This document shows positions 39,631 to 54,949 of a DNA stretch of 64,000 bases, one piece after another. The position numbers were made by a program, and so were the translations under genes. Location: assembly GCA_963779755.1 (NCBI GenBank), contig CAVZZO010000003.1:320001-384000 (forward strand), in the 5' to 3' direction. Numbering within the stretch: position 1 is the stretch's first letter; each line of letters opens with the position of its first letter. The notes under the pieces were generated by a model. That model was not told where the DNA came from. It worked only from the letters and a program-made list of their open reading frames with translations, and searched no databases. The DNA comes from an uncultured Gemmatimonadales bacterium (lineage in GTDB: Bacteria > Gemmatimonadota > Gemmatimonadetes > Gemmatimonadales > GWC2-71-9).

Positions 39631-39821
39631 AGATATCTCCTCCGCGTGTGTTCCGGGGGGAGGGCCCGGCGTCCCCCCCAGTCAACCTTGGGAGCTGGCG
39701 CTGCGCTTGCCTCCGATCCGCTGCGCCGTATCACCCGCGGTGCGGCGAGCGCCACCGGGCGCGAGCCGCTTCCGCCCTCCACGCCGTCGGCGGCAGGGTC
39801 CCGGTAGATGGCGGGTCGCGA

Positions 39822-40163
39822 TCAGCCCCAGAAGATGCCCGTCGGGTCACGCTCCACCTCACGAAACAGAATTCCGAACGACCCGGCAACCGGCAGCGGC
39901 TCGTATGAATGCCATTTGAGATCGCTCCGCTGGCAGTACAGCTGCCATAGCTCGCGCGTGGCATTGTATCGGAACTTGGCCACCGCGTGCTCCAGCCACT
40001 CGCTCGGATCATTCCAGGCCGGTCTCACCTCGAACAGCACGACATCGCTCCCGGAAATTCGAAACCCATGGCGCAACTGATGCCGCACGCGCTGGGGGAC
40101 TCGGTCGCAGAACGCCGCAAGCTCCCGCTCGATCCGCTTGCGATCCAGATCGCGAATGGCCAT
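39822..40163 (-). CDS. DUF3024-like protein
   Basis: VAKFRY, WQLYCQRSDLKWHSY, DPTGIFWG terminus. Confidence 0.8.
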   Translation of the reverse strand: MAIRDLDRKRIERELAAFCDRVPQRVRHQLRHGFRISGSDVVLFEVRPAWNDPSEWLEHAVAKFRYNATRELWQLYCQRSDLKWHSYEPLPVAGSFGILFREVERDPTGIFWG

Positions 40164-40403
40164 GTAATCTCCGTGTGTGACAGGGGAGGCCAGGCGCCTC
40201 GCGAACGATCGGCGCTTCAGCGGCCCGGGGCCGCCTAGGCCCCCCGACGCCGTGGCCGGCGACGAGGAGAACTGCTGCACCAGCCCGGGCAGTGCAACCT
40301 TCCCAGGACTGGTCGCCGGCGGCCGCGGCGACGCGCCGAGGTCGACTCAGCGCCGTCCTGTGCGGGGGCGACGCCGGCACTGAACCGTTAGAGGCGCTCC
40401 CAC

Positions 40404-41093
40404 TCAGCCCTTGTCGCTACCGATGACTCGATAGATCCCGGCTCCGAGCACACCGCCAATGACCGGAGCCACCCAGAACAGCCACAGCTGCGAAATCGCC
40501 CAACCGCCGGCGAACACCGCCACGCCGGTGCTGCGCGCGGGGTTCACGGAAGTGTTGGTAACCGGGATGCTGATCAAGTGGATCAGGGTAAGGCACAACC
40601 CGATTGCGATCGGCGCGAAACCCTGTGGCGCCCGTTTGTCGGTAGCGCCAAGAATGACGAAGAGAAACATCATCGTCATGACCACCTCTGTTATCAGGGC
40701 GGCCAGCAGGCTGTACCCGCCTGGCGAATGGGCGCCGTACCCGTTCGACGCGAAGCCTGCAGATAGATCGAAACCTGCCTTACCGCTGGCGATGAGATAC
40801 AGAACACCACCCGCCGCGATGCCACCCGCGACCTGTGCAACGATGTAGGGTAGCAACTCCGTCGCCGGGAACCTACCACCGGCCCAGAGACCTACCGACA
40901 CCGCCGGGTTGAGGTGGCAGCCGGAGATGTGCCCGATGGCGAAGGCCATGGTGAGCAGGGTCAGGCCGAATGCCAGTGCGACGCCCAGCAGGCCGATGCC
41001 GACATTAGGGAACGCGGCGGCCAGAATGGCACTGCCGCACCCGCCAAGCACCAGCCAGAACGTTCCGATCAACTCCGCGCCATACCGTTTCAT
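40404..41093 (-). CDS. aqpZ: Aquaporin Z
   Basis: [11 protein letters not shown] and VNPARS motifs; [13 protein letters not shown]. Confidence 0.96.
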
Positions 41094-41609
41094 ACGCTAC
41101 TCCATTCTCATAGGAGGAGCAGGCAATCGAGCCTTTCGGCTCAGGGGACGCTTCGATCGGACTTCCCGACAGATCTCAGGTCGCGGCGCCGCCGTCACAC
41201 TCCGGGAGGACCATGAAAGACTCGCACCGCCGCCCGATCATCAGGTACCAACTGGCAGGCGCGGCAACGGACCTGAACGGCCACCATCCGTCCCACAAGA
41301 TTGGGCCGCGGCCGGGACTTGGCAACGGAGGGGCCGGCGAGCCGTCCCAAGCACTGGTGGGTCAGCCGGCGCTCGATGCCCGGAATGCGCGATGCACGCC
41401 GTCGGCGTCAGCTCCCACCATCGCTGACACGGTCAACCCCGTCGCCAGCCGCAACAGTCCGTGGAGCAGGGCCAGCAGCACAGCCAGCAGCAATGCGCCA
41501 CGAACCCGGTTGCCCACCCCCCATTGGTGACCTGTGCGGGCCACCTGCGCGGTTTCGCCAGGTTCGGCCGACTTGAACATGATGGTCGTGCTGATTCCGA
41601 TTGTCCGGG

Positions 41610-41996
41610 TTATTGGCCGGCAGGCGGTTGCCACAATTCTACCTTGTTTCCTTCTGGATCGATGACCCAGGCAAACGTCCCGTACTCGGACTCGTCGACC
41701 TTCTCGAGGACGTTGCAGCCTTCTTCGCGTAAGACTCTGACCAGAGCGTAGAGATCCTCTACCCGGTAGTTGACCATGAAGGTTGAGTTGCTGGGCGCAA
41801 ACTGGTCACCTTGTGCCGAACCAATAGACCACACGGTAGTTCCGGTAACCGGCTTACCTTCACCGTCGGTCCAGGTGAAAACCGTGCCGCCCCATTCCTG
41901 GACATCGATTCCCAGGTGCCGCTTGTACCACGCCTGGAGTGCCGGAGCGTCTTTGGCTTTGAAGAAGATGCCGCCAATGCCAGTGACCCGCTTCAT
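41610..41996 (-). CDS. VOC/glyoxalase family protein
   Basis: MKRVTGIGGIFFK...DPEGNKVELW. Confidence 0.9.
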   Translation of the reverse strand: MKRVTGIGGIFFKAKDAPALQAWYKRHLGIDVQEWGGTVFTWTDGEGKPVTGTTVWSIGSAQGDQFAPSNSTFMVNYRVEDLYALVRVLREEGCNVLEKVDESEYGTFAWVIDPEGNKVELWQPPAGQ

Positions 41997-42043
41997 AGAG
42001 CCTCGGAGGTCGGGTGGTGGTGAGGGAGAGTGTATCGTCTGCC

Positions 42044-42183
42044 GCTGACGAAGTGCGCGAGTGCTGCGGCGCCCTGCCGACTTGCGTCAAGAACCTACGC
42101 TGCCGCAGCACGGCGGCTAGATCGCCGGGCCCTACTCCAATGGGTCGCAGCACCGGCCTGGAGAACGGTGCGCTTGATAGGCG
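42044..42183 (-). repeat. attC site, degenerate
   Basis: CTGACGAAGTGCGCG...GCGCTTGATAG, both cores mutated. Confidence 0.75.
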
Positions 42184-42249
42184 ACGCAGAAGACCTCCTG
42201 CCAAGTCGACATGGGCGCCCGTGACGCGGCAGTTGGCCTCAGAACGTAG

Positions 42250-42690
42250 CTGCGGCCGTTGGGTGCCAGAGAACTTCCCACAAGTGGCCATCTGGATCCC
42301 GACAATTGCCCGAGTAGATGCCCCACGGGCGCTTGCGGGGCGGCTCAGTACGGCTCGCGCCTGCCGCGACTGCACGCTCCAGCAGGGCGTCCACCTCTGC
42401 AGCGCTCTCCGCAAGGTACCCGAGACTGAACCCGTGGGGGCGATTCGGCGATGCCAGTGTCCTTCACCAGCTCGCGGCGTGGATACAACGCTAACATGAG
42501 ACCACCCTGCATCTGAATCCTCGACGTCCAGCACCTTGCGAATCTCGACCTCCGCCTCGCCGTTGGAGGAGAGCTTCGGCGCGCGCTTCACCGACTCGAT
42601 CGCTTCTTCCAGCGACTTCACCTGAATGATCGAGCAACGAGCTCCGCACCCTGACCCTGGAAACGATCCGTCCTCGTGCACCGTAGGGGG
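42250..42690 (-). pseudogene. Fragments of a VOC protein and a YCII-like protein
   Basis: EVDALLERAVAAGA...RDPDGHLWEVLWHP and IIQVKSLEEAIE...EVEIR C-terminal pieces without proper starts. Confidence 0.55.
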
Positions 42691-42710
42691 GTCCGCAAAG
42701 GAGTGTCCCG

Positions 42711-43112
42711 ATGCGTATCACACTGCGACATGCTCGTCTGGCCGCCACCTGGGTGCTCGGCCTGTATCTGGGCTGGATCTACGTACACCAGGGTTGGATC
42801 AAATTCGATCCCAATGGATTCTGGACAACAGCGTTCGCTCGCTGGAACTATCCCGACTGGCTGCGCCTCCTGGTTGGCAGCATCGAGGTTGGCGGGGGAC
42901 TGTGTCTGATCGTCCCGTGGCTGGCGAGCTACGGAGCCATTGGCCTCCTGGCGGTCATGGGTGCTGCTTGGATCACTCGAGCGCAAGGTGCACACTGGGT
43001 TGACGTTGCGTGGATCACGGCCTACATGATCGGCCTTGCGTGGATCGCGGTGCAGTGGCGGGACTGGCGGCTTCGCCTGACGCCTCTCGGAAAGCGTGTC
43101 GCCGCTGGCTAA
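42711..43112 (+). CDS. DoxX family membrane protein, antisense to the array
   Basis: FARWNYPDWLRLLVGSIEVGGG; stop TAA lies in the attC core. Confidence 0.8.
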   Translation: MRITLRHARLAATWVLGLYLGWIYVHQGWIKFDPNGFWTTAFARWNYPDWLRLLVGSIEVGGGLCLIVPWLASYGAIGLLAVMGAAWITRAQGAHWVDVAWITAYMIGLAWIAVQWRDWRLRLTPLGKRVAAG

Positions 43113-43262
43113 CGAAGTGCGCGAGAGCAGCGGTGCGATGTCCTGCGCCCTTCACAAGCCTGTGCTTCCAGAGCGAGACAGCTAGACCGCGGGGACATGC
43201 GTCGGTGGCCCATGCCGCCGGCCCGAGGGCCACGGCCTAGCAGCTCGACACGTGAGCTAGGG
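43107..43262 (-). repeat. attC site, degenerate
   Basis: GGCTAACGAAGTGCGCG start; far end eroded. Confidence 0.75.
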
Positions 43263-44072
43263 GCCACTTTGCTTTGCCGCTCGTGCTGTCCAAGCCCTCG
43301 CTGTCAGGACTATGGAGCCGTCCTCGTTGCGGGGCAACGTTGCTGCCAGCCGTCTCGCGAGGTCTTGCTGTTTCTGGGCGGCGAGTGAAGACAAATAACC
43401 CGGAGCCGGACCAGGCCCGCCAACGAAGGGGGTCCAGTAGTCAGCAAAGTCCTCGAAGCGCGTTGTAACCTCAAGCGCCTCCACCCCAACATGAGAGAAG
43501 CCCGCCTCCCGGAAAGCAGCTTCCAACGCGGAGCGGGAGCAGATCGGGAAGCGCTCCCCCTCATCGTGCTGACGAGCAGTAGGGTCAAGCTCGACTGCGG
43601 CGTCCCAGAACCGGCGGAGGAACTCCATCCCTCCGGCATAGTCCCAGACGCACGCGGCCACCAGGCCGTCTTCGGCTGCCAGTGACCTCATCTCTCGAAG
43701 GGCCGCCGTTGGATCCGGGAGGAAGTTCAAGACGAGAGAGGAAGCCACGACGTCGTAGCCAGCCGCTCTGGTCGGTAATTTGGCCGCAGTGGCAGTAAGG
43801 AACTGAACCCTTTGATCTGGAAGCGCGGCGCGAGCATGCTCGATAAACTGGTCGGACGCGTCCGTCGCCACCACGGAACCGGGGCGCCCCATCTCGAGTA
43901 TCGCCGAGGTCAGAGCCCCCGTGCCGCAGCCGACTTCGAGCCAATGGCGGCTCGGAGGCACGCCCAGCCACACCACGAAGGCGCGGGCCAACTCCCGACT
44001 CCACCGTCCCATGAAACGCTCATACGCACTCGCACTTTCCCAGACATCCCTGGGAGAATCGTGAGGCATCAT
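43257..44072 (-). CDS. Class I SAM-dependent methyltransferase
   Basis: LEVGCGTGAL, YERFMGRWS, VWDYAGGM. Confidence 0.9.
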   Translation of the reverse strand: MMPHDSPRDVWESASAYERFMGRWSRELARAFVVWLGVPPSRHWLEVGCGTGALTSAILEMGRPGSVVATDASDQFIEHARAALPDQRVQFLTATAAKLPTRAAGYDVVASSLVLNFLPDPTAALREMRSLAAEDGLVAACVWDYAGGMEFLRRFWDAAVELDPTARQHDEGERFPICSRSALEAAFREAGFSHVGVEALEVTTRFEDFADYWTPFVGGPGPAPGYLSSLAAQKQQDLARRLAATLPRNEDGSIVLTARAWTARAAKQSGP

Positions 44073-44086
44073 GGTTTGTTGTAGCC

Positions 44087-44140
44087 GCCTAACGAAGTGC
44101 GCGTGAGCTGCGGCGCCGCAGAACGACGCGCTTGTTAGCC
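44087..44140 (-). repeat. Minimal 54-bp attC site
   Basis: GCCTAACGAAGTGCGCGTGAGCTGCGGCGCCGCAGAACGACGCGCTTGTTAGCC: both arms kept, central region absent. Confidence 0.85.
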
Positions 44141-44375
44141 CGCACCGCGAACTGCTTACCACGGCTGCACGACCGAGCGACCGCGGACCTGGAGAGGGAA
44201 TGGCTATCCTCTCGGCTCATACCGCATCGCTACCGCCCCTGAGCAGTACTCCACCCGGCCTACGAGCCTCAAATCGATAACCTCCGACAGCCCCGCAAAC
44301 AAAGTCGGACCATGGCCCACGAGCCGTGAGTGCAACACGAACTTCGTTTATCCGCACCGCTAGTCCGACATCTTG

Positions 44376-44762
44376 TCAGCGAGCTTGCTTGGGCTGGAAC
44401 AATTCAACCGGATTCCCGGCTGGGTCTTCTATCAGGACTTGATCCCCGCCGATCCCCCTGATGCGATCGCTCCGAAACCGCACCCCCGCGGCGCGCAAGC
44501 GCGTGATCTCCGCCGCTAGGTCCTCGACGACCAGCTGAAAGCGGTTCCAGCCTCCCGGCTCTGGACGCCGGCCATCGGCCAAGACCTGACCACCTCCACC
44601 CGCACTATTCGGGGCGCTGAGGAGCAGTCGGAAACCCTCTCGGGAGAGCATTGCGAATGGAGGAGCGGGATGCATGTCAAGCTGGAATCCAAGCTGCTGG
44701 GTGTAAAAGACGATGGCCTCGTCGACATCCTCCACTATGTATCGTACGGTGATATCAGACAT
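44376..44762 (-). CDS. VOC/glyoxalase family protein
   Basis: VRYIVEDVDEAIVFYT, PGGWNRF, DPAGNPVELF. Confidence 0.9.
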   Translation of the reverse strand: MSDITVRYIVEDVDEAIVFYTQQLGFQLDMHPAPPFAMLSREGFRLLLSAPNSAGGGGQVLADGRRPEPGGWNRFQLVVEDLAAEITRLRAAGVRFRSDRIRGIGGDQVLIEDPAGNPVELFQPKQAR

Positions 44763-44789
44763 CGGTTCTTCCAGGACCCGGGTAGTGCG

Positions 44790-44929
44790 GTTTGATGAGG
44801 TGCGTAACAGCGGCGGCGCGATGCCGCGCTCCTCCATCAAACCTACACTTCCGCAGCCCGGCGGCTAGGTGCCCGGGAAATGGACAAAGAGGCCGCGCGA
44901 CCGGCCCGCAGAACGACGCGCTTAGCCAG
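44790..44929 (-). repeat. attC site, degenerate
   Basis: Body conserved (CAGCGGCGGCGCGATGCC...CAGAACGACGCGCTT), cores mutated. Confidence 0.72.
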
Positions 44930-44933
44930 CAGC

Positions 44934-45455
44934 CTATTGACTAGGGACCAGAGACACTGGCGCCCATCGATGCTGGCGCGAACCTAGCAAGCCACCGATC
45001 AGAGCACCGACACCTACGAAAGTGGTTGCGCCGACGACCCACCGGCCATCCCTCTGGACCGGAGAATCCGGGTCATTGAATGCAATTGAACCGAGAACCA
45101 AGACCCCAGCCGCAATTCCGCCGCCGAGCAGTGCCCCTTTCCACGTTCCAGAGCCGCCGCTCACTGCGAGTTGCCGTAGCTTCTCAACCGAGGCCACTCG
45201 AATACTACCGGAATCGGGCCATGGACACTGCGGCTCCCGATACGGGCAGTAAGTCAGCGCAGTGTCACCAGCATTAAGGGGTATCACGAGACGTCCGATC
45301 ACCACGTCGGCATCAGGCGCTCGGAATCTGACCAGGCTGCCAGAAGGAAGGGGAAGGCGCTGAGGAGTCTGGGCGGCCACTATGCTGACGCAGGACAATG
45401 AGATCAAGCCCACTATGCAGGAACGCACCGAAGCCTCCGGAAAAGCCCTGGCCAA
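44934..45455 (-). CDS. Hypothetical exported protein with C-terminal glycine-rich hydrophobic hairpin
   Basis: KGALLGGGIAAG...GALIGGLLG; similar to 57600-58100. Confidence 0.6.
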   Translation of the reverse strand: MARAFPEASVRSCIVGLISLSCVSIVAAQTPQRLPLPSGSLVRFRAPDADVVIGRLVIPLNAGDTALTYCPYREPQCPWPDSGSIRVASVEKLRQLAVSGGSGTWKGALLGGGIAAGVLVLGSIAFNDPDSPVQRDGRWVVGATTFVGVGALIGGLLGSRQHRWAPVSLVPSQ

Positions 45456-45495
45456 ATCTGATTCCGGCCCATCCCCTGAGCGTGACCTCGCTGCG

Positions 45496-45634
45496 GGCTA
45501 ACGAAGTGCGTGTCAGCGGCGGCGCGATGCCCCGCCCTTTCACAATCCTACGCCTCCACAGCGCGACGCTGGATCCACGGGAGATGCCGCGCGCGGCCCC
45601 GGCACCGGCCTGCAGAACGACGCGCATGTTAGGC
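45496..45634 (-). repeat. attC site
   Basis: GGCTAAC...GCGCATGTTAGGC. Confidence 0.9.
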
Positions 45635-45642
45635 GGCGGCGT

Positions 45643-46014
45643 TCATCGAGTGAGGTTGGCAATGTTCTTCAGTACCGCGCCCCACGCGACCCCGAGCAAG
45701 CCGGCTAACATCAGGGCATACAGTTCAAGCATAAGCGCCCAGCGGCCCACTTGACGCGTCTTCCAGGAATACCATGAAATGGCAAATGGAAGGAGCAGGT
45801 ACAGGAAGAACCCCGCATCCATTGCCCTGGTCAGGCCATGTCGCCGAACATTAGGTGCTAGCCACGTTACCACGGCGAGAGGCGGCACTATGGCAAGGAT
45901 GAGCCACATTCCTTGCGACGGCGGAACCCCCAGGAGGGAATAGAGCATGCCGAACAGCAGACACGAGCCGGTGATGATGTACAGCTTGTACCGGGGTGTC
46001 TCGACCTCGTCCAT
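45643..46014 (-). CDS. Hypothetical membrane protein
   Basis: Four TM segments; GGAGG RBS; fills the cassette. Confidence 0.7.
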   Translation of the reverse strand: MDEVETPRYKLYIITGSCLLFGMLYSLLGVPPSQGMWLILAIVPPLAVVTWLAPNVRRHGLTRAMDAGFFLYLLLPFAISWYSWKTRQVGRWALMLELYALMLAGLLGVAWGAVLKNIANLTR

Positions 46015-46036
46015 TGCTCCTCCGTTCAGGCCGTCC

Positions 46037-46170
46037 GCCTAACGAAGTGCGCGTGTGCTGCGGCGCGAACCCAACTTCCTTCACAAACTTACGGTTCCGC
46101 AGCGCGGCCGCTAGATGCCGGGGAGAGGCACTACGCGGCCGCACCGCCGGCCCTGTCAGCTCGACGCGCT
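46037..46170 (-). repeat. attC site interrupted by IS110-family element (remainder at 48787-48796)
   Basis: Ends at CGACGCGCT; missing AGTTAAGC found after the element. Confidence 0.88.
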
Positions 46171-46171
46171 C

Positions 46172-46708
46172 ATGTACGCGGATCCTTTCGGGTTGAGAGG
46201 CTGTCCAGATGTTACGGGAACTGACCCGAATAGTCTAGACGATTGTCCGGAGCGATCCCCAGGTTACTATGCTGCTCGCATTGCCAAGGGTGAAGGTAGC
46301 AGGGTGTTGAATACGGCTTTGGGAGTACTCGCCACGATGGGTCAGGTGCTGGCGGAGCATACGACGGGGAGTGTCACAGTCGGTGAAGAAAGTATCGAGA
46401 CGGATGCCTATGGACTCACGGGTGGACTGGAAAATGGCAATACCAGAGTAGTGCAACGAGTCGGACTTCCCCAGATAGGAGGAAGCCTCGGATTCACTGT
46501 TGGGAATCCGGGTACTGGCGCCGTTGATTTTGGATGGAGCAAGCATCTCGGCATCACGATTCATACCGTGCCCAGTCCTGAAGGCGGCGGAATCTCTGGA
46601 ATCACCTTCAATCTCGGAATCGGCACACCGACCCTTATCGGCATCCAGGACCGGACAGTCGTGTCGCAACCGATTCCCAAATGCCTCGTCTCATGTGCAC
46701 ATGAGTAG
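46172..46708 (+). CDS. Orphan Rhs C-terminal toxin-like tip, type A
   Basis: Starts MYADPFGL (Rhs DPxGL boundary motif), then a unique 170 aa; visibly lower GC. Confidence 0.7.
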   Translation: MYADPFGLRGCPDVTGTDPNSLDDCPERSPGYYAARIAKGEGSRVLNTALGVLATMGQVLAEHTTGSVTVGEESIETDAYGLTGGLENGNTRVVQRVGLPQIGGSLGFTVGNPGTGAVDFGWSKHLGITIHTVPSPEGGGISGITFNLGIGTPTLIGIQDRTVVSQPIPKCLVSCAHE

Positions 46709-46937
46709 TCTACTTGGGTGGTTTCTGGTTGCCGGGGGAATTTTCTACATCGGCGCTGCTGCGTTCGACTGGATTGGGCGAGCAGCAAGTGTGCCCATCG
46801 TGAAGTGGCTTATCCTGCCGCTCCGCATAGGTGAAATACGCTGGGTTGGTGGTGGCAATCGACGATTTGCCGCTACCCTCGGCATCTTTCTTCTAGTCAT
46901 CGGCTTGCTACTCGTCTTGTTCGGTCCTGAACGATAG
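46701..46937 (+). CDS. Putative immunity protein, two TM segments
   Basis: Overlaps tip stop (ATGAGTAG); 78 aa hydrophobic; function inferred from position. Confidence 0.6.
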   Translation: MSSLLGWFLVAGGIFYIGAAAFDWIGRAASVPIVKWLILPLRIGEIRWVGGGNRRFAATLGIFLLVIGLLLVLFGPER

Positions 46938-46946
46938 GCTGCCGAA

Positions 46947-47435
46947 GGAGCCGGCCTCGTCTAGCCTGGGGCGCTCGCAGTGCCTCCGGGTTGTCGGGCC
47001 TGAGCTCCGAGGGGTCGGGTCTAGTTAGGAGCCTCGCGGGCTGCCGCGCGTGGCGGACCTCGGCCGGCGGAAAAGGAAAGTGGTGGGGGCCCCACGAGTT
47101 CAGCGGAACCCATCGGCTCCAGACCTGCCGCGAGCCGGCTCCCTCGTCGGGCGTCATGCGCCCACGGGAGCAGACGGGGTCACCCCACCGGCTCCAAGGT
47201 GCTACCCGGTCCTTCGATTGTCAAAGAGCGCCGCGTTCCGCGTGCCGGCGGGATCCTGGCACCACCCTCATAGGTCGTTGAGGCTCGGGGCCTCCCACAT
47301 CTTCATGGATGCTCTCCGATCCGCGGCCGGGCGGCCAGCAACACTCTGTGCGCGGAGCTCACCGAAGACGCCGGCGGCTCAAGGCAAATAGTGGGCGGCC
47401 CGGCCGCGCACGCGCGGCTCCCCACCGATCTCCGG
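46947..47435 (-). ncRNA. Putative bridge/seek RNA region with one donor and two target loops
   Basis: Non-coding, conserved in three copies, downstream of the recombinase; guide segments match the end junction and attC. Confidence 0.8.
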
Positions 47436-48704
47436 CTATTCGCTCACCACCGGCTCTGCCCGATGCCGCTGCGCCTCCCAGCGCTCCCGCTCGAACGGCT
47501 GGCCCGAGTGGAGTACGGCCAGGAGGAGCGGCACCAGCTTGCGCGCCACCGCACAGACCGCCTTGGTCCGGAGCCCGCCATTGCGGGCCAGCAGGGCCTG
47601 ATAGTACGCGCGGTAGAGCCCCCGGGGCTGGCACCAGCGGCCGCCCAGGAGGAACAGCTGGCGGCGGAGCAGCGGCCGGCCCCGTTTGGACTGTTTGCGC
47701 CGCCCCTGCACGCTGCCGCTGGAACGCTCGACCAGATTCATGCCTGCGAGTTTCAGCACCTGGCGGGGATGAGTGAAGCGCTCCGGAGTGCCCAGCTCGG
47801 CCACAATCGTAGCCGCACAGGTGGCACTCACCTCGGGAATGGTGGTCAGCGCCTTGGCGGCGGGACACTGCTCCACCAAGGCGGCGATCTGCTGGTTCAA
47901 CACCGCGAGCTGCTCCCGCAGGAGGTCCCAGCGGGCCAGGAGCTGCTGGATCTCCAACCGCCGCTCGGGAGCGGCGTCGGCCAGGGCGACACTGGTGCGG
48001 GCGGACTCGCGCAGGACGTGGAGCCGCTCCGGGCCCACGTGGCCCCGCGAGACGGACCGCGCCAGGCGCGTCACCGCGGCCGGGGCGGCCGCCAGGAAGT
48101 CCTGCGGCAGCGGCCAACGCGCCAGCAGGGCGCGCGGGGTGGGCTTGCGCACCTGCGAGAAGTGCGTCAGGAACTCGGGCCAGGCCAGGTCGAGCAGGCT
48201 CTGGAGACGGTTCTTGAACCGGGTTTCCTCGACGGTTAACCGGTGCCGGTGGGTGGTGAGCAGCCGCAGCTCGAGATACGGGGGCTGCAGCGCCGGATAT
48301 CCCACGAAGATCCCCAGGCTCACCAGCTTGCAGATCTCGGCGGCATCCTTCGCGTCCGTCTTGTTGGGGCTGTTATCCTCCAGTTCCTTGGCCCGCTTGG
48401 TGTGGGCCGGCAGGATATTGACCAGCGCATAGCCGCGCGCCCGCAGGCACTCGGCAAACGTGAAGCCGTGATGGCCGGCGAACTCCAGCCCCACCAGCAT
48501 CTGTCCGGGCCGGATGCCGGGAAACCAGGCCGTCAACTGCGCCGCGGCGGCCTCGAAGCCCGCGCGGCTCACCGGCACCCGGACCGGCTTCGTGCGGCGC
48601 CCATCGGGGCCCTGAGCAACCAGCACGTGGACCCGCTTCGCGGTATCCACGCCTACGTGAACGGGGAACGTGCGGGTATAGGCAGACTTTTCGTCGGGGG
48701 TCAT
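47436..48704 (-). CDS. IS110 family DEDD recombinase/transposase
   Basis: VGVDTAK, GLEFAG, KTDAKDA and C-terminal RSSGS; alternative start 48731. Confidence 0.95.
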   Translation of the reverse strand: MTPDEKSAYTRTFPVHVGVDTAKRVHVLVAQGPDGRRTKPVRVPVSRAGFEAAAAQLTAWFPGIRPGQMLVGLEFAGHHGFTFAECLRARGYALVNILPAHTKRAKELEDNSPNKTDAKDAAEICKLVSLGIFVGYPALQPPYLELRLLTTHRHRLTVEETRFKNRLQSLLDLAWPEFLTHFSQVRKPTPRALLARWPLPQDFLAAAPAAVTRLARSVSRGHVGPERLHVLRESARTSVALADAAPERRLEIQQLLARWDLLREQLAVLNQQIAALVEQCPAAKALTTIPEVSATCAATIVAELGTPERFTHPRQVLKLAGMNLVERSSGSVQGRRKQSKRGRPLLRRQLFLLGGRWCQPRGLYRAYYQALLARNGGLRTKAVCAVARKLVPLLLAVLHSGQPFERERWEAQRHRAEPVVSE

Positions 48705-48796
48705 GGCGCGGCTCCGGGTGGAGGGAATCACAGGAGTCGCGGAAGGAGCTACGGGCCGCGCAGCGGCGTCAAGCGGGTATAGATGTCTAGTTAAGC

Positions 48797-49277
48797 GACT
48801 ATGCTCGGGTTGCGTACTTCACGGGGAGGTCAAGACTCCGCTCTCTTCTGCGGGGAGGCTCGACTCGAGGCCGGGGTGCTCCTGCGGCGACTCCGGCGGG
48901 GCGAGAAGCTCGGGCTCCCGCACTCCCGACCGATACCGGGACTCGGCCGGCGGTGTCAAGAGTTGCGGATTCCCGACCAAGGACGCCACCTGGCGGATCA
49001 TCTATCGGCTCGATCGAGACGCAATCGTGATTGTGGAGGTCTTTGCGAAGAGCCAAGCGACTCCACAACAGGTCCTGGCCACGTGCGCGCGGCGGCCGAA
49101 CCACTAGGATGCGGTGAGCCGCGGGGAGGATTGATCATGAACAAACGGAAGCAGAAGCGGCTGGAAGCTGCCGGCTGGCGGGTGGGAACGACCACCGACT
49201 TCCTCGACCTCTCCCCTGAGGAGGCCGCCTTGGTGGAGCTGCGCCTGAAGCTGAGCGCGGCCCTCCGTCGAATCTGA
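48797..49277 (+). pseudogene. Decayed RelE/Gp49-like toxin plus truncated HTH antitoxin
   Basis: LHGEVKTP, ARLEAGVLLRRL..LGLPHSRP, WRIIYRLDRDAIVIVEVFAK in shifting frames; antitoxin MNKRKQKRLEAAGW stops before the HTH. Confidence 0.8.
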
Positions 49278-49287
49278 GTGGGTTGCT

Positions 49288-49427
49288 GGCTAACGAAGTG
49301 CGCGTGTGCTGCGGCGCGAACCTTCAGGTCTTCACAAACCTACGCGTCCTTATCCGTGCCACTAGGAGCCCGAGAGACTAGAGGAGACCGGCGCGACCGG
49401 CCCCGCAGAACGAAGCGCTAGTGAGGT
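49288..49427 (-). repeat. attC site with one core mismatch
   Basis: GGCTAAC...GCGCTAGTGAGGT. Confidence 0.85.
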
Positions 49428-49446
49428 GGCCCACTGCGGCCGCTCA

Positions 49447-49629
49447 CTACACTTCGTACGAGATCGGAAGGGCATGCAAGCACTCGGGGCAGAAATAGAT
49501 GCGGCGGGCGACGACAACCGAGCGGGCGCGCTTGTAGAAGATTCTGTCGAGCGAGGCATCACACGAGGGACATAGCGGGACCAGATCGCCCCTCTCCTCA
49601 TACGTGATTTTGGAATAGCGCTCCATCAT
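49447..49629 (-). CDS. Small zinc-ribbon protein
   Basis: CPSC...CPEC, 60 aa. Confidence 0.6.
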   Translation of the reverse strand: MMERYSKITYEERGDLVPLCPSCDASLDRIFYKRARSVVVARRIYFCPECLHALPISYEV

Positions 49630-49736
49630 GCCGCCCCCATCGTTAGAGCATGAAGTCAAGGAAGCCGAGGGATGGAACCGGGGCTCGAGCCCGACAAAGC
49701 AGGATGCCCTCCCTCCGGGGTGAGCCATTCCGCGCC

Positions 49737-49875
49737 ACCTAACGAAGTGCACGTGTGCTGCCGCGCGAGCCTTCAGGTCTTCACAAACCTACGCGTCCTT
49801 AGCCGCACCGCCAGGGCCGGAGCGTGCGCCCGCGGCCCTCGCGACCGGCCCGCCTGCTGCAAACACTGGTTAGAC
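49737..49875 (-). repeat. attC site
   Basis: ACCTAAC...CACTGGTTAGAC. Confidence 0.9.
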
Positions 49876-49889
49876 CGCAGCGTCCGCCA

Positions 49890-49918
49890 TTGACAGATAG
49901 ACGCCAGCGGCGTATATT
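49890..49918 (+). promoter_or_regulatory. Sigma70 promoter of TA cassette with palindromic operator in the spacer
   Basis: TTGACA-N17-TATATT; ACGCC-AGC-GGCGT. Confidence 0.8.
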
Positions 49919-49923
49919 GACGC

Positions 49924-50235
49924 ACGGAACTGATCGAAACAGCGGTCTTTACCAAACAAGCGACCGCCGAATGGTCGGCGGAGGCGTACCGGGCTTTCCA
50001 GCTCTACCTGGTGCTCAACCCGGAGGCCGGGGCCGTCATTCCCGGCGCCGGCGGTCTACGAAAGGTCCGCTGGCGACTGCCAGGCCGGGGCAAGCGCGGT
50101 GGTGCCCGGGTGATCTACTACTACAAGAATGCCGCGGGCCGGATCTACCTCTTGTTCCTGTATCCGAAGCACGTGCGGAGTGATCTGAGCCCCGGGGAGC
50201 TGCGGACGCTCCGGGCTCTCGTGGAGTCGGAGTGA
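49924..50235 (+). CDS. RelE/HigB-family toxin with ACG at the expected start
   Basis: ELIETAVF...NPEAGAVIPGAGGLRKVRW..GKRGGARVIYY. Confidence 0.8.
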   Translation, partial: TELIETAVFTKQATAEWSAEAYRAFQLYLVLNPEAGAVIPGAGGLRKVRWRLPGRGKRGGARVIYYYKNAAGRIYLLFLYPKHVRSDLSPGELRTLRALVESE

Positions 50236-50256
50236 TTCATTGACCGAGAGGATGAC

Positions 50257-50602
50257 CATGCGCAAGGACCTGTTCGACCAACTGCTGGCCAGCATCACGC
50301 AGATGAAGGAGATCGAGGCGGGCCGCCGGAAGCCCTCCCGGGTAACCCGCGGGGAGGACTTGCTGGCCAGCGAGCCCCCCGACGTCGCGGCCCTCCGTGC
50401 CCACTTTGGCTTGAGCCAGAGCAAGTTCGCGGCGCTACTTGGCATCAGCGTGGATACTCTGCAGAACTGGGAGCAGCATCGCCGCACGCCCGAGGGGCCT
50501 GCTCGGGTGCTTCTTCGTGTCGCCGCGACTCATCCGGAGGCGCTGCTTTCGATCTCCCAGAACCCCGCCCCCCGCCGTCGCGCCCGCAAAATAGCCGTCT
50601 AG
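50257..50602 (+). CDS. HTH (HigA-like) antitoxin
   Basis: GLSQSKFAALLGISVDTLQNWEQHRRTPEGPA; start approximate. Confidence 0.85.
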
Positions 50603-50637
50603 CCGCCTCGACCGACGCCACGGAGCGAGGTGCTGCG

Positions 50638-50779
50638 GTCTAACGAAGTGCGCGTGTGTTGCAGCGCGATCCCCACCTCCTTCACAAACCTACGTTTCCG
50701 CAGCGCGGCCGCTAGATCGACGGGAAATGCACCAACCGCCGGCAGCCCCCGGCCTGCAGAACGATGCTGCTTGTTAGGA
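50638..50779 (-). repeat. attC site
   Basis: GTCTAAC...GCTTGTTAGGA. Confidence 0.9.
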
Positions 50780-50806
50780 GGCGCCCGGCGTATTACATTG
50801 CATGAC

Positions 50807-51028
50807 ATGAAAAGCTCAGCCCTGACCATCCGCCTCGATCCCGAATTGGAGCGAGAGCTCGCCCGGGTGGCGAAACGCTCCGGCCGTTCCCGCAGCCAGG
50901 TCGTCCGCGACGCCTTACGCCGTCAACTGGCGATCGCTCAATTCCAGGATCTCCGCCGCCGGATCATGCCGCTCGCTGAGGCTGCCGGCTACCTGACCGA
51001 TGAGGATGTCTTTCGCGACGTCTCGTGA
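50807..51028 (+). CDS. CopG/ribbon-helix-helix antitoxin
   Basis: LTIRLDPEL...SRSQVVRDALRR. Confidence 0.85.
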   Translation: MKSSALTIRLDPELERELARVAKRSGRSRSQVVRDALRRQLAIAQFQDLRRRIMPLAEAAGYLTDEDVFRDVS

Positions 51029-51426
51029 GAGTCTTCTTCGATACCAATGTGCTGGTGAGCGCATTGGCTACTCGGGGGCTATGCGCTGACCTCTTCCAAG
51101 CTACTCTGGCGGACCATGATCTTCTCATTGGCGAAACGGTCATCGCCGAACTCACGGACGTTCTCAAACGTAAATTCCACGCCAGTGCCGCGAACCTCGC
51201 TGAAATCGAAGCGCTCCTGCGTCGGCATGGCGAAGTCATTCACAGTGAGCGGCTACTGCAGGTGAGGATCCGTGATCCCAAAGATCGAGCGATTCTCGCG
51301 GAAGCCGTTGCTGGTCGGGCAGATATCCTGGTCACAGGGGACCGTGACCTTCTCTCCATCACCGCCCGCGCGCCGATACCAATTCGCTCGCCCAGGGAGT
51401 TTTGGGAGGCCCTCCGGTCGAAATAG
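51025..51426 (+). CDS. PIN-domain toxin
   Basis: FFDTNVLVSA, RDPKD, LVTGDRDLL; GTGA overlap. Confidence 0.9.
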   Translation: MRVFFDTNVLVSALATRGLCADLFQATLADHDLLIGETVIAELTDVLKRKFHASAANLAEIEALLRRHGEVIHSERLLQVRIRDPKDRAILAEAVAGRADILVTGDRDLLSITARAPIPIRSPREFWEALRSK

Positions 51427-51443
51427 CTCCGATACTTAGCGCC

Positions 51444-51583
51444 TCCTAACGAACTGCGCGTGTGCTGCAGCGCGATCCCGACTTCCTTCACAAACCTACG
51501 TTTCCGCAGCGCCGCCGCTAGATGCCCGGGACATGCTCCGATGCCGGCAGCACCGGCCCGCCCATTGGAAACGCTAGTTAAAC
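51444..51583 (-). repeat. attC site
   Basis: TCCTAAC...GAAACGCTAGTTAAAC. Confidence 0.9.
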
Positions 51584-51967
51584 CGCCATCGGGCGGATGC
51601 TCGCCCGCACCCACTCCAAAAGCTGCTCCCGGCTCAGGCGGCCAGCCGCAACTCCCAGAATGACCTCTTCCGCCTTGTCCACCGAAGAAACCAGCTCCTG
51701 GCCATTGAGAACCAAGAAGACTTCCATAGCTGCGTGGCCGATCCGCTTGTTCCCGTCCACAAAGGGATGATTCTGGATCAGGCTAAACGCCAGGGCGGTC
51801 GCCTTGGCCGCGAGGTCCGGGTACAGGTCCTCTCCACCAAAGGTCATCCGTGGCTGGGCGAGCGCGGCCTCAAGCGCCCCGAGGTCCCGGATGCCAGAAG
51901 CGCCGCCGCTCTGATGGAGCAGACGGCGCTGAAGCTCAATCGCTTCGCCGAGTGTGAGGTACCGCAC
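51578..51967 (-). CDS. doc: Doc/Fic family toxin
   Basis: HPFVDGNKRIG; stop within attC core. Confidence 0.92.
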   Translation of the reverse strand: MRYLTLGEAIELQRRLLHQSGGASGIRDLGALEAALAQPRMTFGGEDLYPDLAAKATALAFSLIQNHPFVDGNKRIGHAAMEVFLVLNGQELVSSVDKAEEVILGVAAGRLSREQLLEWVRASIRPMAV

Positions 51968-51968
51968 C

Positions 51969-52163
51969 CTAGGCGAGCCGGCGATACAGTTCGCTGTTCT
52001 TGCTCAGAACACGACGCGCAGCTTCCTCGAAGTCCTTCTCGGGGTTCGCGATGAAGTCACGCACCGCCGCCGCGGCCAGATCCGCCGGGGGAACGCGCAA
52101 CTCCGCGGCGGCCTCCCGGAGGCGCCGCTCGGCATCGTCAGGCAGTTGGATCGAAAGGGTCAT
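51969..52163 (-). CDS. Antitoxin partner of Doc
   Basis: 64 aa ending KNSELYRRLA, directly upstream of doc. Confidence 0.82.
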   Translation of the reverse strand: MTLSIQLPDDAERRLREAAAELRVPPADLAAAAVRDFIANPEKDFEEAARRVLSKNSELYRRLA

Positions 52164-52216
52164 AGAGCCTCCGCTCCAATTCTAGCCCATCCGGACGCTC
52201 CGGGCCAGTTCTGGCG

Positions 52217-52357
52217 GTTTAACGAAGTGCGCGTGTGCTGCGGCGCGATGCCCAGCACCCTCACAAACCTACGTTTCCACCGCGCGACCGCGAGACCACT
52301 GGGAAATGCCCCAAGCGGCCGCAGCGCCGGCCCGCCTGCTGCAAACACTTGTTAGAG
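52217..52357 (-). repeat. attC site
   Basis: GTTTAAC...CACTTGTTAGAG. Confidence 0.9.
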
Positions 52358-52427
52358 GGCTTTGCCTTGCTCGTACAACGATATAGCGATAGATTACGCA
52401 GTCGTTGTACAGGCCTAGGAGGACAGA

Positions 52428-52634
52428 GTGTCTATCGTCAAAGTGTCGCCCAAGTACCAGGTGGTCATCCCGCAAAAGATCCGGGAAGCCCTCGGGATTG
52501 CTCCGGGCCAGAAGGTCCAGGCTATCCAGTACGGCGACCGGATCGAGTTCATCCCCGTGAAGCGGTTGCGGCAAATGCGTGGCTTTCTTGGGGGCATCGA
52601 CACTGAGGTGCCCCGCGAAGCGGACCGGGTGTGA
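52428..52634 (+). CDS. AbrB/MazE/SpoVT family antitoxin
   Basis: VSPKYQVVIPQKIREALGIAPG. Confidence 0.9.
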   Translation: MSIVKVSPKYQVVIPQKIREALGIAPGQKVQAIQYGDRIEFIPVKRLRQMRGFLGGIDTEVPREADRV

Positions 52635-53005
52635 ACGTCGTCGACTCGTCGGCCTGGCTCGAGTACTTCGCCGATGGCCCGAACGCAGCTTTCTTCGCTC
52701 CAGCCATTGAGCAGACGGCCAAGCTTCTCATCCCCACCGTGTGCCTCTATGAAGTCTTCAAACGGGTTCTCCTGCAGCGGGGGGAGGGCCCTGCCCTCCA
52801 AGCCATTGCCCTCATGCAGCAAGGTACCCTGGTGGACTTGGACGGCCCGATTGCCCTCACGGCGGCCCGCCTCAGCTCCGATCTCAAGCTGCCGATGGCT
52901 GACAGCATTGTTCTCGCAAGCGCTCGGCACCATGCAGCAACGGTCTGGACGCAGGATGTGGATTTTGAGAGCCTCCCCGACGGTCGATTTGCCCGGAAGA
53001 AGTAG
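52631..53005 (+). CDS. vapC: VapC PIN-domain toxin
   Basis: VVDSSAWLEYF, LPMADS, WTQDVDF. Confidence 0.9.
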   Translation: MNVVDSSAWLEYFADGPNAAFFAPAIEQTAKLLIPTVCLYEVFKRVLLQRGEGPALQAIALMQQGTLVDLDGPIALTAARLSSDLKLPMADSIVLASARHHAATVWTQDVDFESLPDGRFARKK

Positions 53006-53015
53006 GGGCAAAGCT

Positions 53016-53156
53016 GGCTAACGAAGTGCGTTTCAGCGGCGGCGCGATGCTCCGCGCCTCTCACAATCCTACGCTTCCACAGCGCGACCGCTAGATCCCC
53101 GGGGATGCGCCAGCGGCCTGCAGCCTCGGCGCGCCCGCTGGAAACGCTAGTTAGGC
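53016..53156 (-). repeat. attC site
   Basis: GGCTAAC...GAAACGCTAGTTAGGC. Confidence 0.9.
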
Positions 53157-53157
53157 C

Positions 53158-53451
53158 TCATTCCCGACGCAGCCAACGGCGGGGGTGCCGGCGCCCATGG
53201 ATGATCCCGAGGACAGAGATCACCGACGGAAATACCCGGTAGTAGACCGCATAGGGGAACCGATGCAAAAGGGCCCGCCGAACGTTCGGGCGGACCTCGG
53301 GGAAGGCTTCAGGATGCTGACGAATGGCAAGGAACTCGTCGTCCAGGGCTTCGACGAACTGTCGCGCCCGCTCTAGTGACTTACTGGCATACCAGATAGT
53401 GGCCTCGGCGAGCTCGGTGCTGGCCTGTGACCGAAGCCTAAGAGGGAGCAC
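53158..53451 (-). CDS. ParE/RelE family toxin
   Basis: RRALLHRFPYAVYY, HGRRHPRRW. Confidence 0.88.
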   Translation of the reverse strand: MLPLRLRSQASTELAEATIWYASKSLERARQFVEALDDEFLAIRQHPEAFPEVRPNVRRALLHRFPYAVYYRVFPSVISVLGIIHGRRHPRRWLRRE

Positions 53452-53669
53452 TACTTGAGGTGACGCTTAAGGTCCGCCTTGACCGCGTCCCAATCGCGCC
53501 CACCCTCGGGGTCCTTCTCGGCCTGCCCCGACCGACGGTCCAGCTCGGCGGCGAGTTCCGGGGACATCGGGGCCGCCTCCTCGGCCTCGAGACTGTCCCA
53601 GATAGCCTCAAGGAGGTCGAGGCGCTCCTGAGGAGTCAGCCGGGAGATATCGACTTTGGGGTGTGCCAT
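53451..53669 (-). CDS. Addiction-module antitoxin
   Basis: LTPQERLDLLEAIWDSL...ELDRR...WDAVK. Confidence 0.88.
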   Translation of the reverse strand: MAHPKVDISRLTPQERLDLLEAIWDSLEAEEAAPMSPELAAELDRRSGQAEKDPEGGRDWDAVKADLKRHLK

Positions 53670-53718
53670 GCTTCAATCTCGGTCCGGGGCCCCAGGTAGG
53701 CAAGATCAGGGCAATGAG

Positions 53719-53859
53719 GCCTAACGAAGTGCGTGTAAGCGGCGGCGCGATGCCCCGCCCTCTCACAATCCTACGCTTCCACAGCGCGACCGCTAAATGC
53801 CCGGGAGATGCAACGACTCGCCGCAGCTCCGGCCCGCTCGCTGGAAACGCTAGTTAAGC
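53719..53859 (-). repeat. attC site
   Basis: GCCTAAC...GAAACGCTAGTTAAGC. Confidence 0.9.
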
Positions 53860-53860
53860 G

Positions 53861-54047
53861 TCAGGGCGCGGGGATCTCAAGATCCCGGCAGATCTTGCGC
53901 GCCAGATGCTCATTTAGCTCGCGATGCCGAGGCACCGTCGTGGCCTTGCGGGCCGTCCGGTTGACATAAACCGAATGGGCGCCACCCTCCCGAAAGGAGT
54001 TGGCACCCATTGTCCTCAAGGTGCTTGATCAGATCGCGACGCTTCAC
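53861..54047 (-). pseudogene. hicA: HicA toxin with +1 frameshift
   Basis: MKRRDLIKHLEDNGCQLL then REGGAHSVY...VPRHREL in another frame; span is 187 nt. Confidence 0.78.
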
Positions 54048-54265
54048 GCCGAGATACGCAGAGGCTCGCGGATTACCGCCTGGCCGGCGAGGGACTCCTC
54101 AGCGAGGGTGCGGTTGGCCTCCAGGACAAGGTGAATTGCCTCCTGGAGATTCTGCCGGGCCTCGTCGAGGGTTGCACCCTGGGTATTCGCGCCCGGCAGC
54201 TCCTCTACGAAACCGATATACCCCTCGGGAACCTCTTGGAAAACGGCCGTAAGCTGGAGCTGCAT
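54044..54265 (-). CDS. hicB: HicB family antitoxin
   Basis: ELPGANTQGATLDEARQNLQEA; AGGAG RBS. Confidence 0.9.
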   Translation of the reverse strand: MQLQLTAVFQEVPEGYIGFVEELPGANTQGATLDEARQNLQEAIHLVLEANRTLAEESLAGQAVIREPLRISA

Positions 54266-54313
54266 GGGGGCTCCTCCTTGGAGCCTGAAATATAGCGGCG
54301 ACCGGTCCCTGAC

Positions 54314-54446
54314 GCTTAACGAAGTGCGCGTGTGCTGCGGCGCGAACCCGCGCTCCTTCACAAACCTACGTTTCCACAGCGCGACAGCTAGATCCCCGGG
54401 AGATGCGCCGCCAGCCCGCGCGACCGGCCCGTCAGAACGACGCGCT
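54314..54446 (-). repeat. attC site interrupted by IS110-family element (remainder at 57039-57048)
   Basis: Ends CAGAACGACGCGCT; AGTTAGGC resumes after the element. Confidence 0.9.
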
Positions 54447-54447
54447 C

Positions 54448-54903
54448 ATGTACGCGGATCCTTTCGGGCTGCTTGCCCAGGATTGTTGTATCGAAACGGG
54501 GGATTGGCGAAAGGATAACCTGCTTCACCCTGCTGTCTACAGCGGCAAGAGAGACAACCCGATGCTGGGAGTAGCTGTGGGTCTCCTGGCCGTTGCAGGT
54601 GGGGCCGAACTGGCTGCTCCCAGGTTATTTGCCGCGGCCACCGCTGCTCTTCCTAAGGTACCGTTTGAGAAATTCCAGGACTGGGGACGAAATGTTGTCC
54701 AATGGGGCCGTGGGGCAGCGGGGGCAATTCAGCGGGTTTCTGAAGTGACGGCCGAGCAGGCCTCTAAATTGGATCCACAGAAAGTGAAGATGGCTCGCGA
54801 CTTCTACCAGAAAGCTGTTGATGCTGGCCGAGGGGGAGCCGCCGCACCCGAACGAGTAAAGCTGATGGAACGCATTTTAGACCTGCAGCAGAGAACCCAT
54901 TAG
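54448..54903 (+). CDS. Orphan Rhs C-terminal toxin-like tip, type B
   Basis: MYADPFGL start, hydrophobic linker, C-domain WGRGAAGAIQR..FYQ..RVKLMERI reminiscent of DUF4951 (from memory, unverified). Confidence 0.72.
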   Translation: MYADPFGLLAQDCCIETGDWRKDNLLHPAVYSGKRDNPMLGVAVGLLAVAGGAELAAPRLFAAATAALPKVPFEKFQDWGRNVVQWGRGAAGAIQRVSEVTAEQASKLDPQKVKMARDFYQKAVDAGRGGAAAPERVKLMERILDLQQRTH

Positions 54904-54949
54904 TGGCTCGGTCCGGTCTATTCGAGCATTGCAACACGGAGGAAGAGCC

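Follow-up and report, generated by a model that had tools for sequence, protein, structure and literature searches.

A putative IS110-family bridge RNA with one donor loop and two target loops accompanies Rhs toxin-tip-like cargo in a Gemmatimonadales repeat array

Three copies of a cargo-bearing element in an attC-like array

We analysed a 64,000-nucleotide stretch of DNA from an uncultured Gemmatimonadales bacterium (GenBank assembly GCA_963779755.1, contig CAVZZO010000003.1, positions 320,001 to 384,000; hereafter the window), in which a 2.6-kb element occurs in three copies, each interrupting one attC-like repeat (Table 1). The element carries an IS110-family recombinase gene, a set of guide units placed 3' of that gene (minus strand, 47302-46959 in copy 1) and two cargo open reading frames (ORFs) that resemble an Rhs toxin tip and its immunity gene. 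We consider it likely that the guide units belong to an IS110-family bridge RNA in which a single donor loop is joined by two target loops, for attC and for the Rhs junction respectively, and which would serve to replace Rhs toxin tips.

Table 1 Features of the element copies and of their host array in the window (aa, amino acids).
Feature	Position	Strand	Details
Element copy 1	46171-48786	minus	2616 bp; recombinase, guide RNA region and cargo
IS110-family recombinase gene, copy 1	47436-48731	minus	431 aa from GTG; 422 aa from ATG at 48704
Donor-binding loop	47262-47310	minus	AGATGT 47302-47297; hairpin 47294-47280; ATGAG 47271-47267
Target unit A, attC type	47004-47065	minus	ACGCGC 47051-47046; hairpin 47042-47030; CCTAACTAG 47029-47021; AC 47020-47019
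Target unit B (loop 3), Rhs-junction type	46942-47004	minus	GACAACCCG(G) 46995-46986; hairpin 46984-46970; CCAGGCTAG 46969-46961; AC 46960-46959
Toxin-tip-like ORF, copy 1	46172-46708	plus	178 aa; MYADPFGL start one base inside the element end
Small membrane-protein ORF, copy 1	46701-46937	plus	78 aa; overlaps the toxin stop; immunity-like by position only
Element copy 2	54447-57038	minus	intact 431-aa recombinase 55688-56983; loop 3 at 55196-55258
Element copy 3	60922-63504	minus	cargo as in copy 2; loop 3 at 61670-61731
attC-like repeat array	42046-64000		hosts all three copies

The recombinase matched the Pfam families DEDD_Tnp_IS110 (PF01548, 1.8e-24) and Transposase_20 (PF02371, 1.5e-16), and it scored 195 bits against a cutoff of 140 with the NCBIfam model NF033542, 'IS110 family RNA-guided transposase'. 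Residues D29, E83, D126, D129 and S338 were invariant in an alignment of 39 homologues. Assigned by position, the acidic residues are spaced by 54, 43 and 3, near the spacing of the catalytic acids D11/E60/D102/D105 of IS621 (PMC11208158; published systems are compared here and below on the basis of parts of each source).

All three copies have the same orientation and the same junctions with the attC-like repeats (carets mark boundaries): ACGCG-CT^CATGTACGCGG on the left and AGATGT^CT^(A/T)GTTAG on the right. CT therefore stands on either side of every copy (3/3; at 46169-46170 and 48787-48788 for copy 1). The copies share the 1.84-kb recombinase/RNA part (46944-48786 in copy 1) and the first 22-27 nt at the far end; between these shared parts lies the cargo gene pair, which in copy 1 differs from that in copies 2 and 3. 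Relative to copy 2, copy 3 has nine single-base deletions, all within short C or G runs, of which one falls in the toxin ORF, one in the right guide of loop 3 and several in the recombinase gene; copy 3 is either a decayed copy or the product of assembly errors.

The host array comprises some 20 attC-like repeats of ~135 nt each, spaced by 340-4000 bp. Because these repeats have GCCTAAC...GTTAGGC ends that pair with each other in the centroid fold, the array would be classed on its sequence features as an integron-type cassette array. As in integron attC sites, the ends have the form RYYYAAC...GTTRRRY, imperfect internal inverted repeats are present and the repeats stand between single small genes. 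No integron integrase was found among 25 ORFs scanned (36100-49277), and the array continues past the window end.

Both kinds of cargo pair start with M-Y-A-D-P-F-G-L one base within the element and consist of a 150-180-aa ORF followed by a small ORF (151 and 82 aa in copy 2). The larger ORF has the form of an Rhs tip, in that it begins at the PxxxxDPxGL end of the Rhs core; tip starts in relatives of the element read NNPV-TFTDPFGL and similar, and the Rhs core domain model ends at that motif. The copy 1 tip matched no Pfam family. It has 16 relatives at E<=0.001, mostly short stand-alone ORFs, and its homologues keep the DPFGL start; among long Rhs-like proteins only one, of 1953 aa, has the first 60 residues in common with it. 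The copy 2 tip (54448-54900) matched DUF4951 (8.4e-08) and resembled an uncharacterised protein in the PDB (2mmb chain A, 6.1e-05). Longer proteins bearing this tip were not found among 6837 candidates, which is weak evidence, and PDB and Atlas searches for toxin function were uninformative. We regard the tip as toxin-like and the neighbouring gene, which would neutralise it, as immunity-like, both roles being putative. In four attC-type insertions (the three window copies and that of a relative, L016) the tip lies between both CT junctions with no Rhs sequence outside, so that the cargo, judged from these junctions, appears to be part of the mobile unit.

Guide units and their codon-phased variation

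Read on the minus strand, the region 3' of the recombinase gene holds three units of guide, hairpin and guide, exactly at the coordinates and with the sequence strings given in the original prediction, which had been made from the letters alone and had called this a bridge-RNA region. Each is built as an internal loop bounded on one side by a basal stem and on the other by a hairpin of 4-5 bp whose pentaloop ends in GA. The hairpin is GAGGC-CCCGA-GCCTC in the donor loop and AGCC-CGCGA-GGCT in unit A. In loop 3 it is GGCGC-CCCGA-GCGCC, with a perfect stem, in copies 2 and 3, and the basal stem pairs GGCC (47000-46997) with 46956-46953. This is the layout of the IS621 loops, which run stem, left guide, stem-loop, right guide (PMC11208158). 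As in IS621, the left guide equals the top strand, the right guide complements the top strand including the core, and the right target guide is extended by two bases that are complementary to the final two of the donor, for the handshake pairing. As in the IS110 family at large, the loops of the non-coding region correspond to the two strands of the donor and of the target about a core dinucleotide that donor and target have in common.

Unit A matched its real insertion sites in the window at 9/9 and 6 nt on its two sides. Its right guide plus AC, the 11-mer CCTAACTAGAC, recurs at the attC/element junction, where copy 2 has it unchanged and copy 1 has it with a single mismatch; five matches to this 11-mer were found where 0.25 were expected, a number that none of 100 shuffles reached. 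The corresponding 11-mer of loop 3 occurs nowhere in the window outside the three element copies. Rfam 15 searched at E<=1 over 40000-55000 returned no matching family. Between the donor loop and the target units lies a terminator-like hairpin, GTGGGGCCCCCAC followed by CACTTTCCTT, at 47095-47083 on the minus strand, and in relatives the CCCCCACCAC part of that hairpin can pair with an upstream GGTGGTGGGG. This hairpin may serve to close a domain, or it may divide the RNA into one part for the donor and another for the target.

Relatives were collected by a locus search with the alignment of 39 of 492 recombinase homologues, which led to 29 loci (designated L001 and so on), 26 of them titled Gemmatimonadota and most of them contigs of metagenome-assembled genomes (MAGs). 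A locus search with a single protein gave 116 pattern matches, none of which was confirmed. Twenty-four units picked by hand went into a covariance model of the target unit, which also put right a one-column MAFFT misregister of the loop-3-type hairpins. In a two-strand search of 380,103 bases the model gave 46 matches at E<=1, every one of them on the recombinase strand. In the model-fitted alignment of these 46 units, 86.5% of cells were paired as against 75.5% in shuffles, none of 500 shuffles reached the observed score and all eight base pairs showed changes on both sides; sliding the partners lowered pairing to 53% or less. The view of the region as a bridge RNA thus gained from its position beside a gene for an IS110-family RNA-guided transposase, from a unit fold that follows IS621 and from these compensatory changes.

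Each relative with a resolved guide-RNA region has one to three target units per element. L003 carries two loop-3-type units in tandem (5503-5617) and L022 three target units (1752-1976). A CTAGAC/CGAGAC-type segment stands 5' of the hairpin, not 3', in L002 (1946-1995), L004 (11788-11834) and L005 (1996-2041); guide order seems to be reversed in this subfamily, and the covariance model mostly misses units of this type.

The left guides of Rhs-type units fall into two classes. The first reads GGN GAY CCG G, with all four glycine and both aspartate codons seen, and the second reads GAC AAC CCG G. These codons are those of the last Rhs-core residues in these genomes, ...G-D-P-V or ...N-N-P-V. 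Guide class agreed with the class of the Rhs flank in all 11 loci compared, which belong to related subfamilies and are not 11 independent events: the guide has AAY in 4/4 loci with NNP flanks, and GAY in 7/7 and AAY in none of those with GDP flanks.

The original prediction had decoded loop 3 as the Rhs motif N-P-L-A-W. We aligned eight loop-3-type units (from two window copies, L003 with its two in tandem, L014, L016, L017 and L027), whose mean identity is 78%. The homologues retain the coding pattern: left guides decode D-N-P in 8/8 and right guides decode L/I-A. The final W is unreliable, since the third decoded codon varies (TGG, TGA, TAG or TGC) and its two C's are common to most units whatever their target. 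Variation falls on 4/5 third codon positions and 2/12 others (Fisher one-sided p=0.028), as against p=0.96 in the other two frames. L024 shows a further third-position change, AAC to AAT, and the loop-3-type left guide of L014 matches its own Rhs flank (GGGAACAACCCG-G) at 9/10 positions.

Loop 3 could instead be no guide at all but a structural or protein-binding hairpin, or a terminator of the cargo operon on the plus strand or of the RNA on the minus strand. It does form the 3' end of the conserved non-coding stretch, right next to the stop of the immunity-like ORF, and its hairpin and GGCCC/GGGCC flanks are strongly conserved. A terminator scan of 46940-47000 nevertheless found nothing on either strand and no T run follows loop 3; the reading of loop 3 as a plus-strand terminator was rejected, as the scan shows no terminator-like site there. 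A structural role explains neither the codon-phased variation, nor a guide class that follows the class of the Rhs flank, nor a layout identical to that of unit A, whose guides match real junctions. We therefore regard this explanation as very unlikely.

Element ends and insertion sites in relatives

In Rhs C-terminal displacement, a new tip and immunity gene replace the old ones at the PxxxxDPxGL boundary, and the old modules pile up downstream. Homologous recombination, acting through core sequence that the old modules retain, is the usual explanation of this process.

The donor loop aligns across the family. In 22 of the 25 copies that have a downstream DPxGL junction, the tip begins with three bases complementary to the three at the 5' end of the right donor guide, and these tip bases take five states (CAT, CAC, CAA, GAA and CTC). 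Three of the 22 are the window copies, and one, L006, lies on a non-junction motif and is doubtful. The three misses comprise an alignment slip in L017, which matches by eye, a tandem junction in L011 and a real mismatch in L028. The left donor guide follows the recombinase-side end of the element (left end, LE), which is AGATGT in most relatives, AGACGT in L008 and AGAGGT in L016. The earlier match of the donor loop to AGATGT-CT-CAT thus extends to both ends across relatives and, as the donor guides read both element ends, the mobile unit would include the toxin tip. In L023 (11132-14400) the recombinase match ends at residue 391 with unrelated sequence after it, and donor-loop-like sequence appears again at ~14389; this element seems to be interrupted by another insertion.

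LE junctions were located in 19 of 24 loci examined, three of them without a flank at a contig end and 16 with a flank. In 11 of these 16 the LE abuts a toxin tip at the codon four before DPxGL, with L011-L013 one base out of register. The other five lie elsewhere: L016 in an attC-type site, L007, L010 and L017 in palindromic sites, and L004 in an unclear one. Three more tip-abutting junctions were found at L009:1121, L022:2894 and L019:1324. In at least 11 relatives the element is inside an Rhs locus, with its cargo tip joined in frame to the Rhs core and the old tip displaced just past AGATGT-CT at the LE end.

The order in L001 is an Rhs gene with its tip, a small ORF, the guide RNA region, the recombinase gene and the displaced tip. 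The Rhs gene encodes a 1563-aa RHS-repeat protein whose core domain ends at residue 1411 and is followed by a 152-aa tip, and the displaced tip begins AGATGT^CT^A GCC TAT ACG GAT CCG TTT GGA (L-A-Y-T-D-P-F-G). L019 has an L001-like arrangement, with a 1803-aa RHS-repeat protein whose core domain ends 178 aa before the stop. Relatives thus show the predicted arrangement, in which an Rhs gene is fused to the element and its former tip lies displaced past AGATGT-CT. L022 holds two elements in tandem (2860-2900), one cargo end directly abutting the LE of the second, as would be expected from successive insertions at the same Rhs junction. The natural junctions NNPVAWSDPYGL, NNPLAYTDPFGL and NNPVAYTDPFGL were found in L024 and L027 (NNPVAW, NNPLAY and NNPVAY); the usual Rhs codon at the junction is valine (GTN), not leucine.

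These arrangements also bear on the view that the tips are ordinary orphan Rhs modules moved by homologous recombination, with a plain insertion sequence merely beside them. Orphan modules with core fragments, typical of homologous displacement, are present in L027 and L024, and copy 1 and copies 2/3 share flanks and differ in cargo, as that view would have it. Against it, the tip of the four attC-type insertions is enclosed by CT junctions beyond which there is no Rhs sequence, the donor guide follows the opening bases of the tip, and in 11/16 flanks the next tip meets the LE at precisely the same codon. On this evidence we rejected the insertion sequence alone as the mobile unit, and we consider the orphan-module explanation highly improbable.

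Right guides were compared with flanks by eye; since agreement at the two core bases is given, the chance level is ~3.75/9. Just ahead of the final AC, the right guide has AG if the LE core is CT and AC if that core is GT (L007, L008, L017 and L020). Non-Rhs units matched their own flanks well: 9/9 for unit A of the window, 8/9 for L016, 8/9 for L007 and 7/9 for L017, the first two in accord with the attC loop as first proposed. The non-Rhs units of L007 (site at 2319, unit at 4091-4154) and L017 (6113 and 7960-8020) match palindromic intergenic flanks, and the family as a whole seems to have a further parking target in non-coding DNA, which is not restricted to attC. Targeting of Rhs would depend above all on the left guide, since the conserved core side is the one that this guide reads; left-guide-led targeting would fit the half-match recombination described for IS621 (10.64898/2026.08.31.748434).

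The core dinucleotide is asymmetric at Rhs sites. In L001, L018, L019 and L023, GT stands at the Rhs-core/tip junction and CT at the LE/old-tip junction. IS621 top strands are cut just 3' of the core and swapped, and GT cores are tolerated (PMC11208158). The pattern follows if a CT donor enters a GT (valine) target under this scheme, since the left junction then keeps the target core and the right junction the donor core. With the GT target core retained, the valine codon would be preserved and the target need not encode leucine. In three loci from one MAG (L011 at 334, L012 at 1733 and L013 at 1299) the LE junction is AGATGT^GT^AACTCGTCCGATCC, one base short of the usual register, and the displaced tip is therefore out of frame with the GT core. 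A GT core with the LE ending at AGAT was considered and rejected: only CT is duplicated at attC sites, and only the CT/GT core holds displaced tips in frame.

Elsewhere in the window, cassette genes of the array include glyoxalase-like and methyltransferase genes, mostly on the minus strand, and a DoxX gene on the plus strand. Just beyond the array stands a HerA-like helicase gene (37038-40280; PF05872, 5e-217), close to a DUF3024 gene; it is unrelated to the element.

A proposed two-target bridge RNA for Rhs tip exchange

The proposed bridge RNA with attC and Rhs-junction loops draws on the anatomy of the region, the attC insertions, the covariation of guides with element ends, the codon-phased conservation of loop 3 and the relatives inserted in Rhs loci, all observed at the level of sequence. 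Under this proposal the 3' region of the recombinase gene would give an RNA with the donor loop first and the two target loops after it, and this RNA would be bound by the recombinase. The donor loop would read AGATGT at the recombinase end and CT-CAT, the first tip codons, at the far end, and would hold the circle junction AGATGT-CT-CATG. Either target loop could then pair with the single donor loop and supply the target. The mobile unit would comprise the recombinase, the RNA, the immunity gene and the toxin tip.

Unit A would direct this cassette into an attC-like repeat (ACGCG-CT-AGTTAGG) and park it there; that the attC loop provides storage and spread is speculation. Unit B would target the coding sequence at the end of the Rhs core, (D/N)-N-P^V/L-A-x-x-D-P-x-G-L. 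Exchange at bases one and two of the V/L codon would fuse the carried tip in frame as ...N-P-V/L-M-Y-A-D-P-F-G-L...; the reading AAC CCG CT^C ATG TAC GCG GAT CCT TTC GGG as N-P-L-M-Y-A-D-P-F-G, given in the original prediction, is arithmetically correct. The matching immunity gene would arrive with the tip, and the old tip and immunity gene would be pushed downstream as an orphan. As there is no Rhs gene in the window, we only infer that loop 3 of the window element is active in its source genome.

A broader proposal seems to us quite possible rather than probable. Several alternative target loops may share one recombinase and one donor loop, and a cassette made up of a promoter-less, start-less toxin-tip/immunity pair may shuttle between neutral parking sites (integron attC or palindromic repeats) and Rhs genes, where it would be expressed in frame. 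RNA-guided recombination, and not only homologous exchange, would then drive Rhs C-terminal displacement and build orphan arrays, at least in Gemmatimonadota.

Several observations weigh against the two-target bridge RNA. In the window the tips stand alone in attC-like repeats, with no Rhs gene and no other DPxGL junction found. The decoded 18-nt target of loop 3 is absent from the window, the best match having three mismatches at 20779, which is at chance level. The hairpin of copy 1 (GGCAC-TGCGA-GCGCC) has one A.C mismatch, the right guide of copy 3 has a deletion, and the fold of the whole 401-nt region is no better than that of shuffles (z = -0.05). The wider covariation rests on the model-fitted alignment, and loop-3-type stems alone hardly vary, with one compensatory pair. 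The relatives are MAG contigs of common ancestry, so their counts are not counts of independent events. Rhs-type right guides match displaced tips unevenly (7/9 in L019 and L020, 5/9 in L018 and L001, 5/10 in L008) and in some cases near chance (4/9 in L024, 3/9 in L011).

Some of these points suit the explanation that loop 3 is an inherited target loop, once used for Rhs insertion and now idle, and that the element moves only between attC sites by means of unit A. All three copies are in attC-like repeats, eleven further, unoccupied repeats in the window match the unit A target at 1-3 mismatches, and the missing Rhs gene and loop-3 target, the stem mismatch and the guide deletion would all fit an idle loop. 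The window cargo has also acquired an ATG at the junction (CT^C ATG), where L016 and L024 have CT^C ACG without a start codon. Copy 2, however, has a perfect loop 3, and loop 3 is as well conserved as unit A among copies that differ by up to 12% elsewhere. L001, moreover, is found in an Rhs locus although one of its units is of attC type, and elements with both kinds of unit would therefore use both kinds of site. An idle loop 3 is, in our view, unlikely.

The two-target bridge RNA has partial precedents. Like the IS621/IS110 bridge system (PMC11208160, PMC11208158), the element combines a DEDD and serine recombinase with a CT core and tolerance of GT. Unlike IS621, it carries cargo, its RNA lies 3' of a 420-430-aa recombinase with the donor loop first, its target-type loops number two or three where IS621 has a single one, and among its targets is a motif within protein-coding sequence, recognised in frame. 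IS1111-attC/seekRNA elements likewise have a non-coding RNA downstream of the transposase and insert into attC in a specific orientation (PMC11187229). Their transposases have 330-350 aa as against 422-431 aa here, where a second target loop and toxin cargo are also present; judged by transposase size, our element would not be a member of that group. By eye, no long subterminal inverted repeats were seen, only CATGTA/CATCTA at the ends, in a comparison that included no dedicated repeat search.

Cargo-bearing IS110 loci have been described that are larger than recombinase plus RNA and hold adaptive genes, with boundaries set by donor-guide matches and half-matches common (Hu et al. 2026, 10.64898/2026.08.14.744561). 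Their cargo concerns resistance, metals and plasmids, whereas here it is a start-less gene fragment with a codon boundary, and the words Rhs, toxin, attC and integron do not occur in that text. In ISPpu9, also of the IS110 family, an extra module downstream of the transposase can move along (Pares-Guillen et al. 2025, PMC12288879), but that module is a small-RNA gene, it lies in REP sequences and no in-frame fusion is involved. In CazIS110-1 the target-loop RNA can work apart from the full bridge RNA (Sun et al. 2025, 10.1101/2025.10.25.684509), as one target loop processed from one RNA and not as alternative targets. A bridge RNA review makes no mention of "multiple target" or "two target" loops. 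Titles and the beginnings of abstracts in the literature gave nothing joining bridge RNAs with Rhs, and supplementary files may hold cases.

Taken with these comparisons, the anatomy supports a multi-target, in-frame-cargo form of bridge recombination that shares the sequence-level features of the family. It differs from the usual account of Rhs displacement in that the new tip and the old one are separated by a recombinase that is site-specific and apparently RNA-guided. With recombinase and guide placed exactly there, Rhs tip acquisition and the downstream pile-up of old modules become testable. If the proposal is right, three things would be new among bridge recombinases: a natural RNA would have several target loops, a guide would have evolved to recognise, in codon register, a motif that encodes protein, and the cargo would be a partial gene that insertion makes whole. 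Integron cassette arrays and the traffic of toxin tips would be connected as well.

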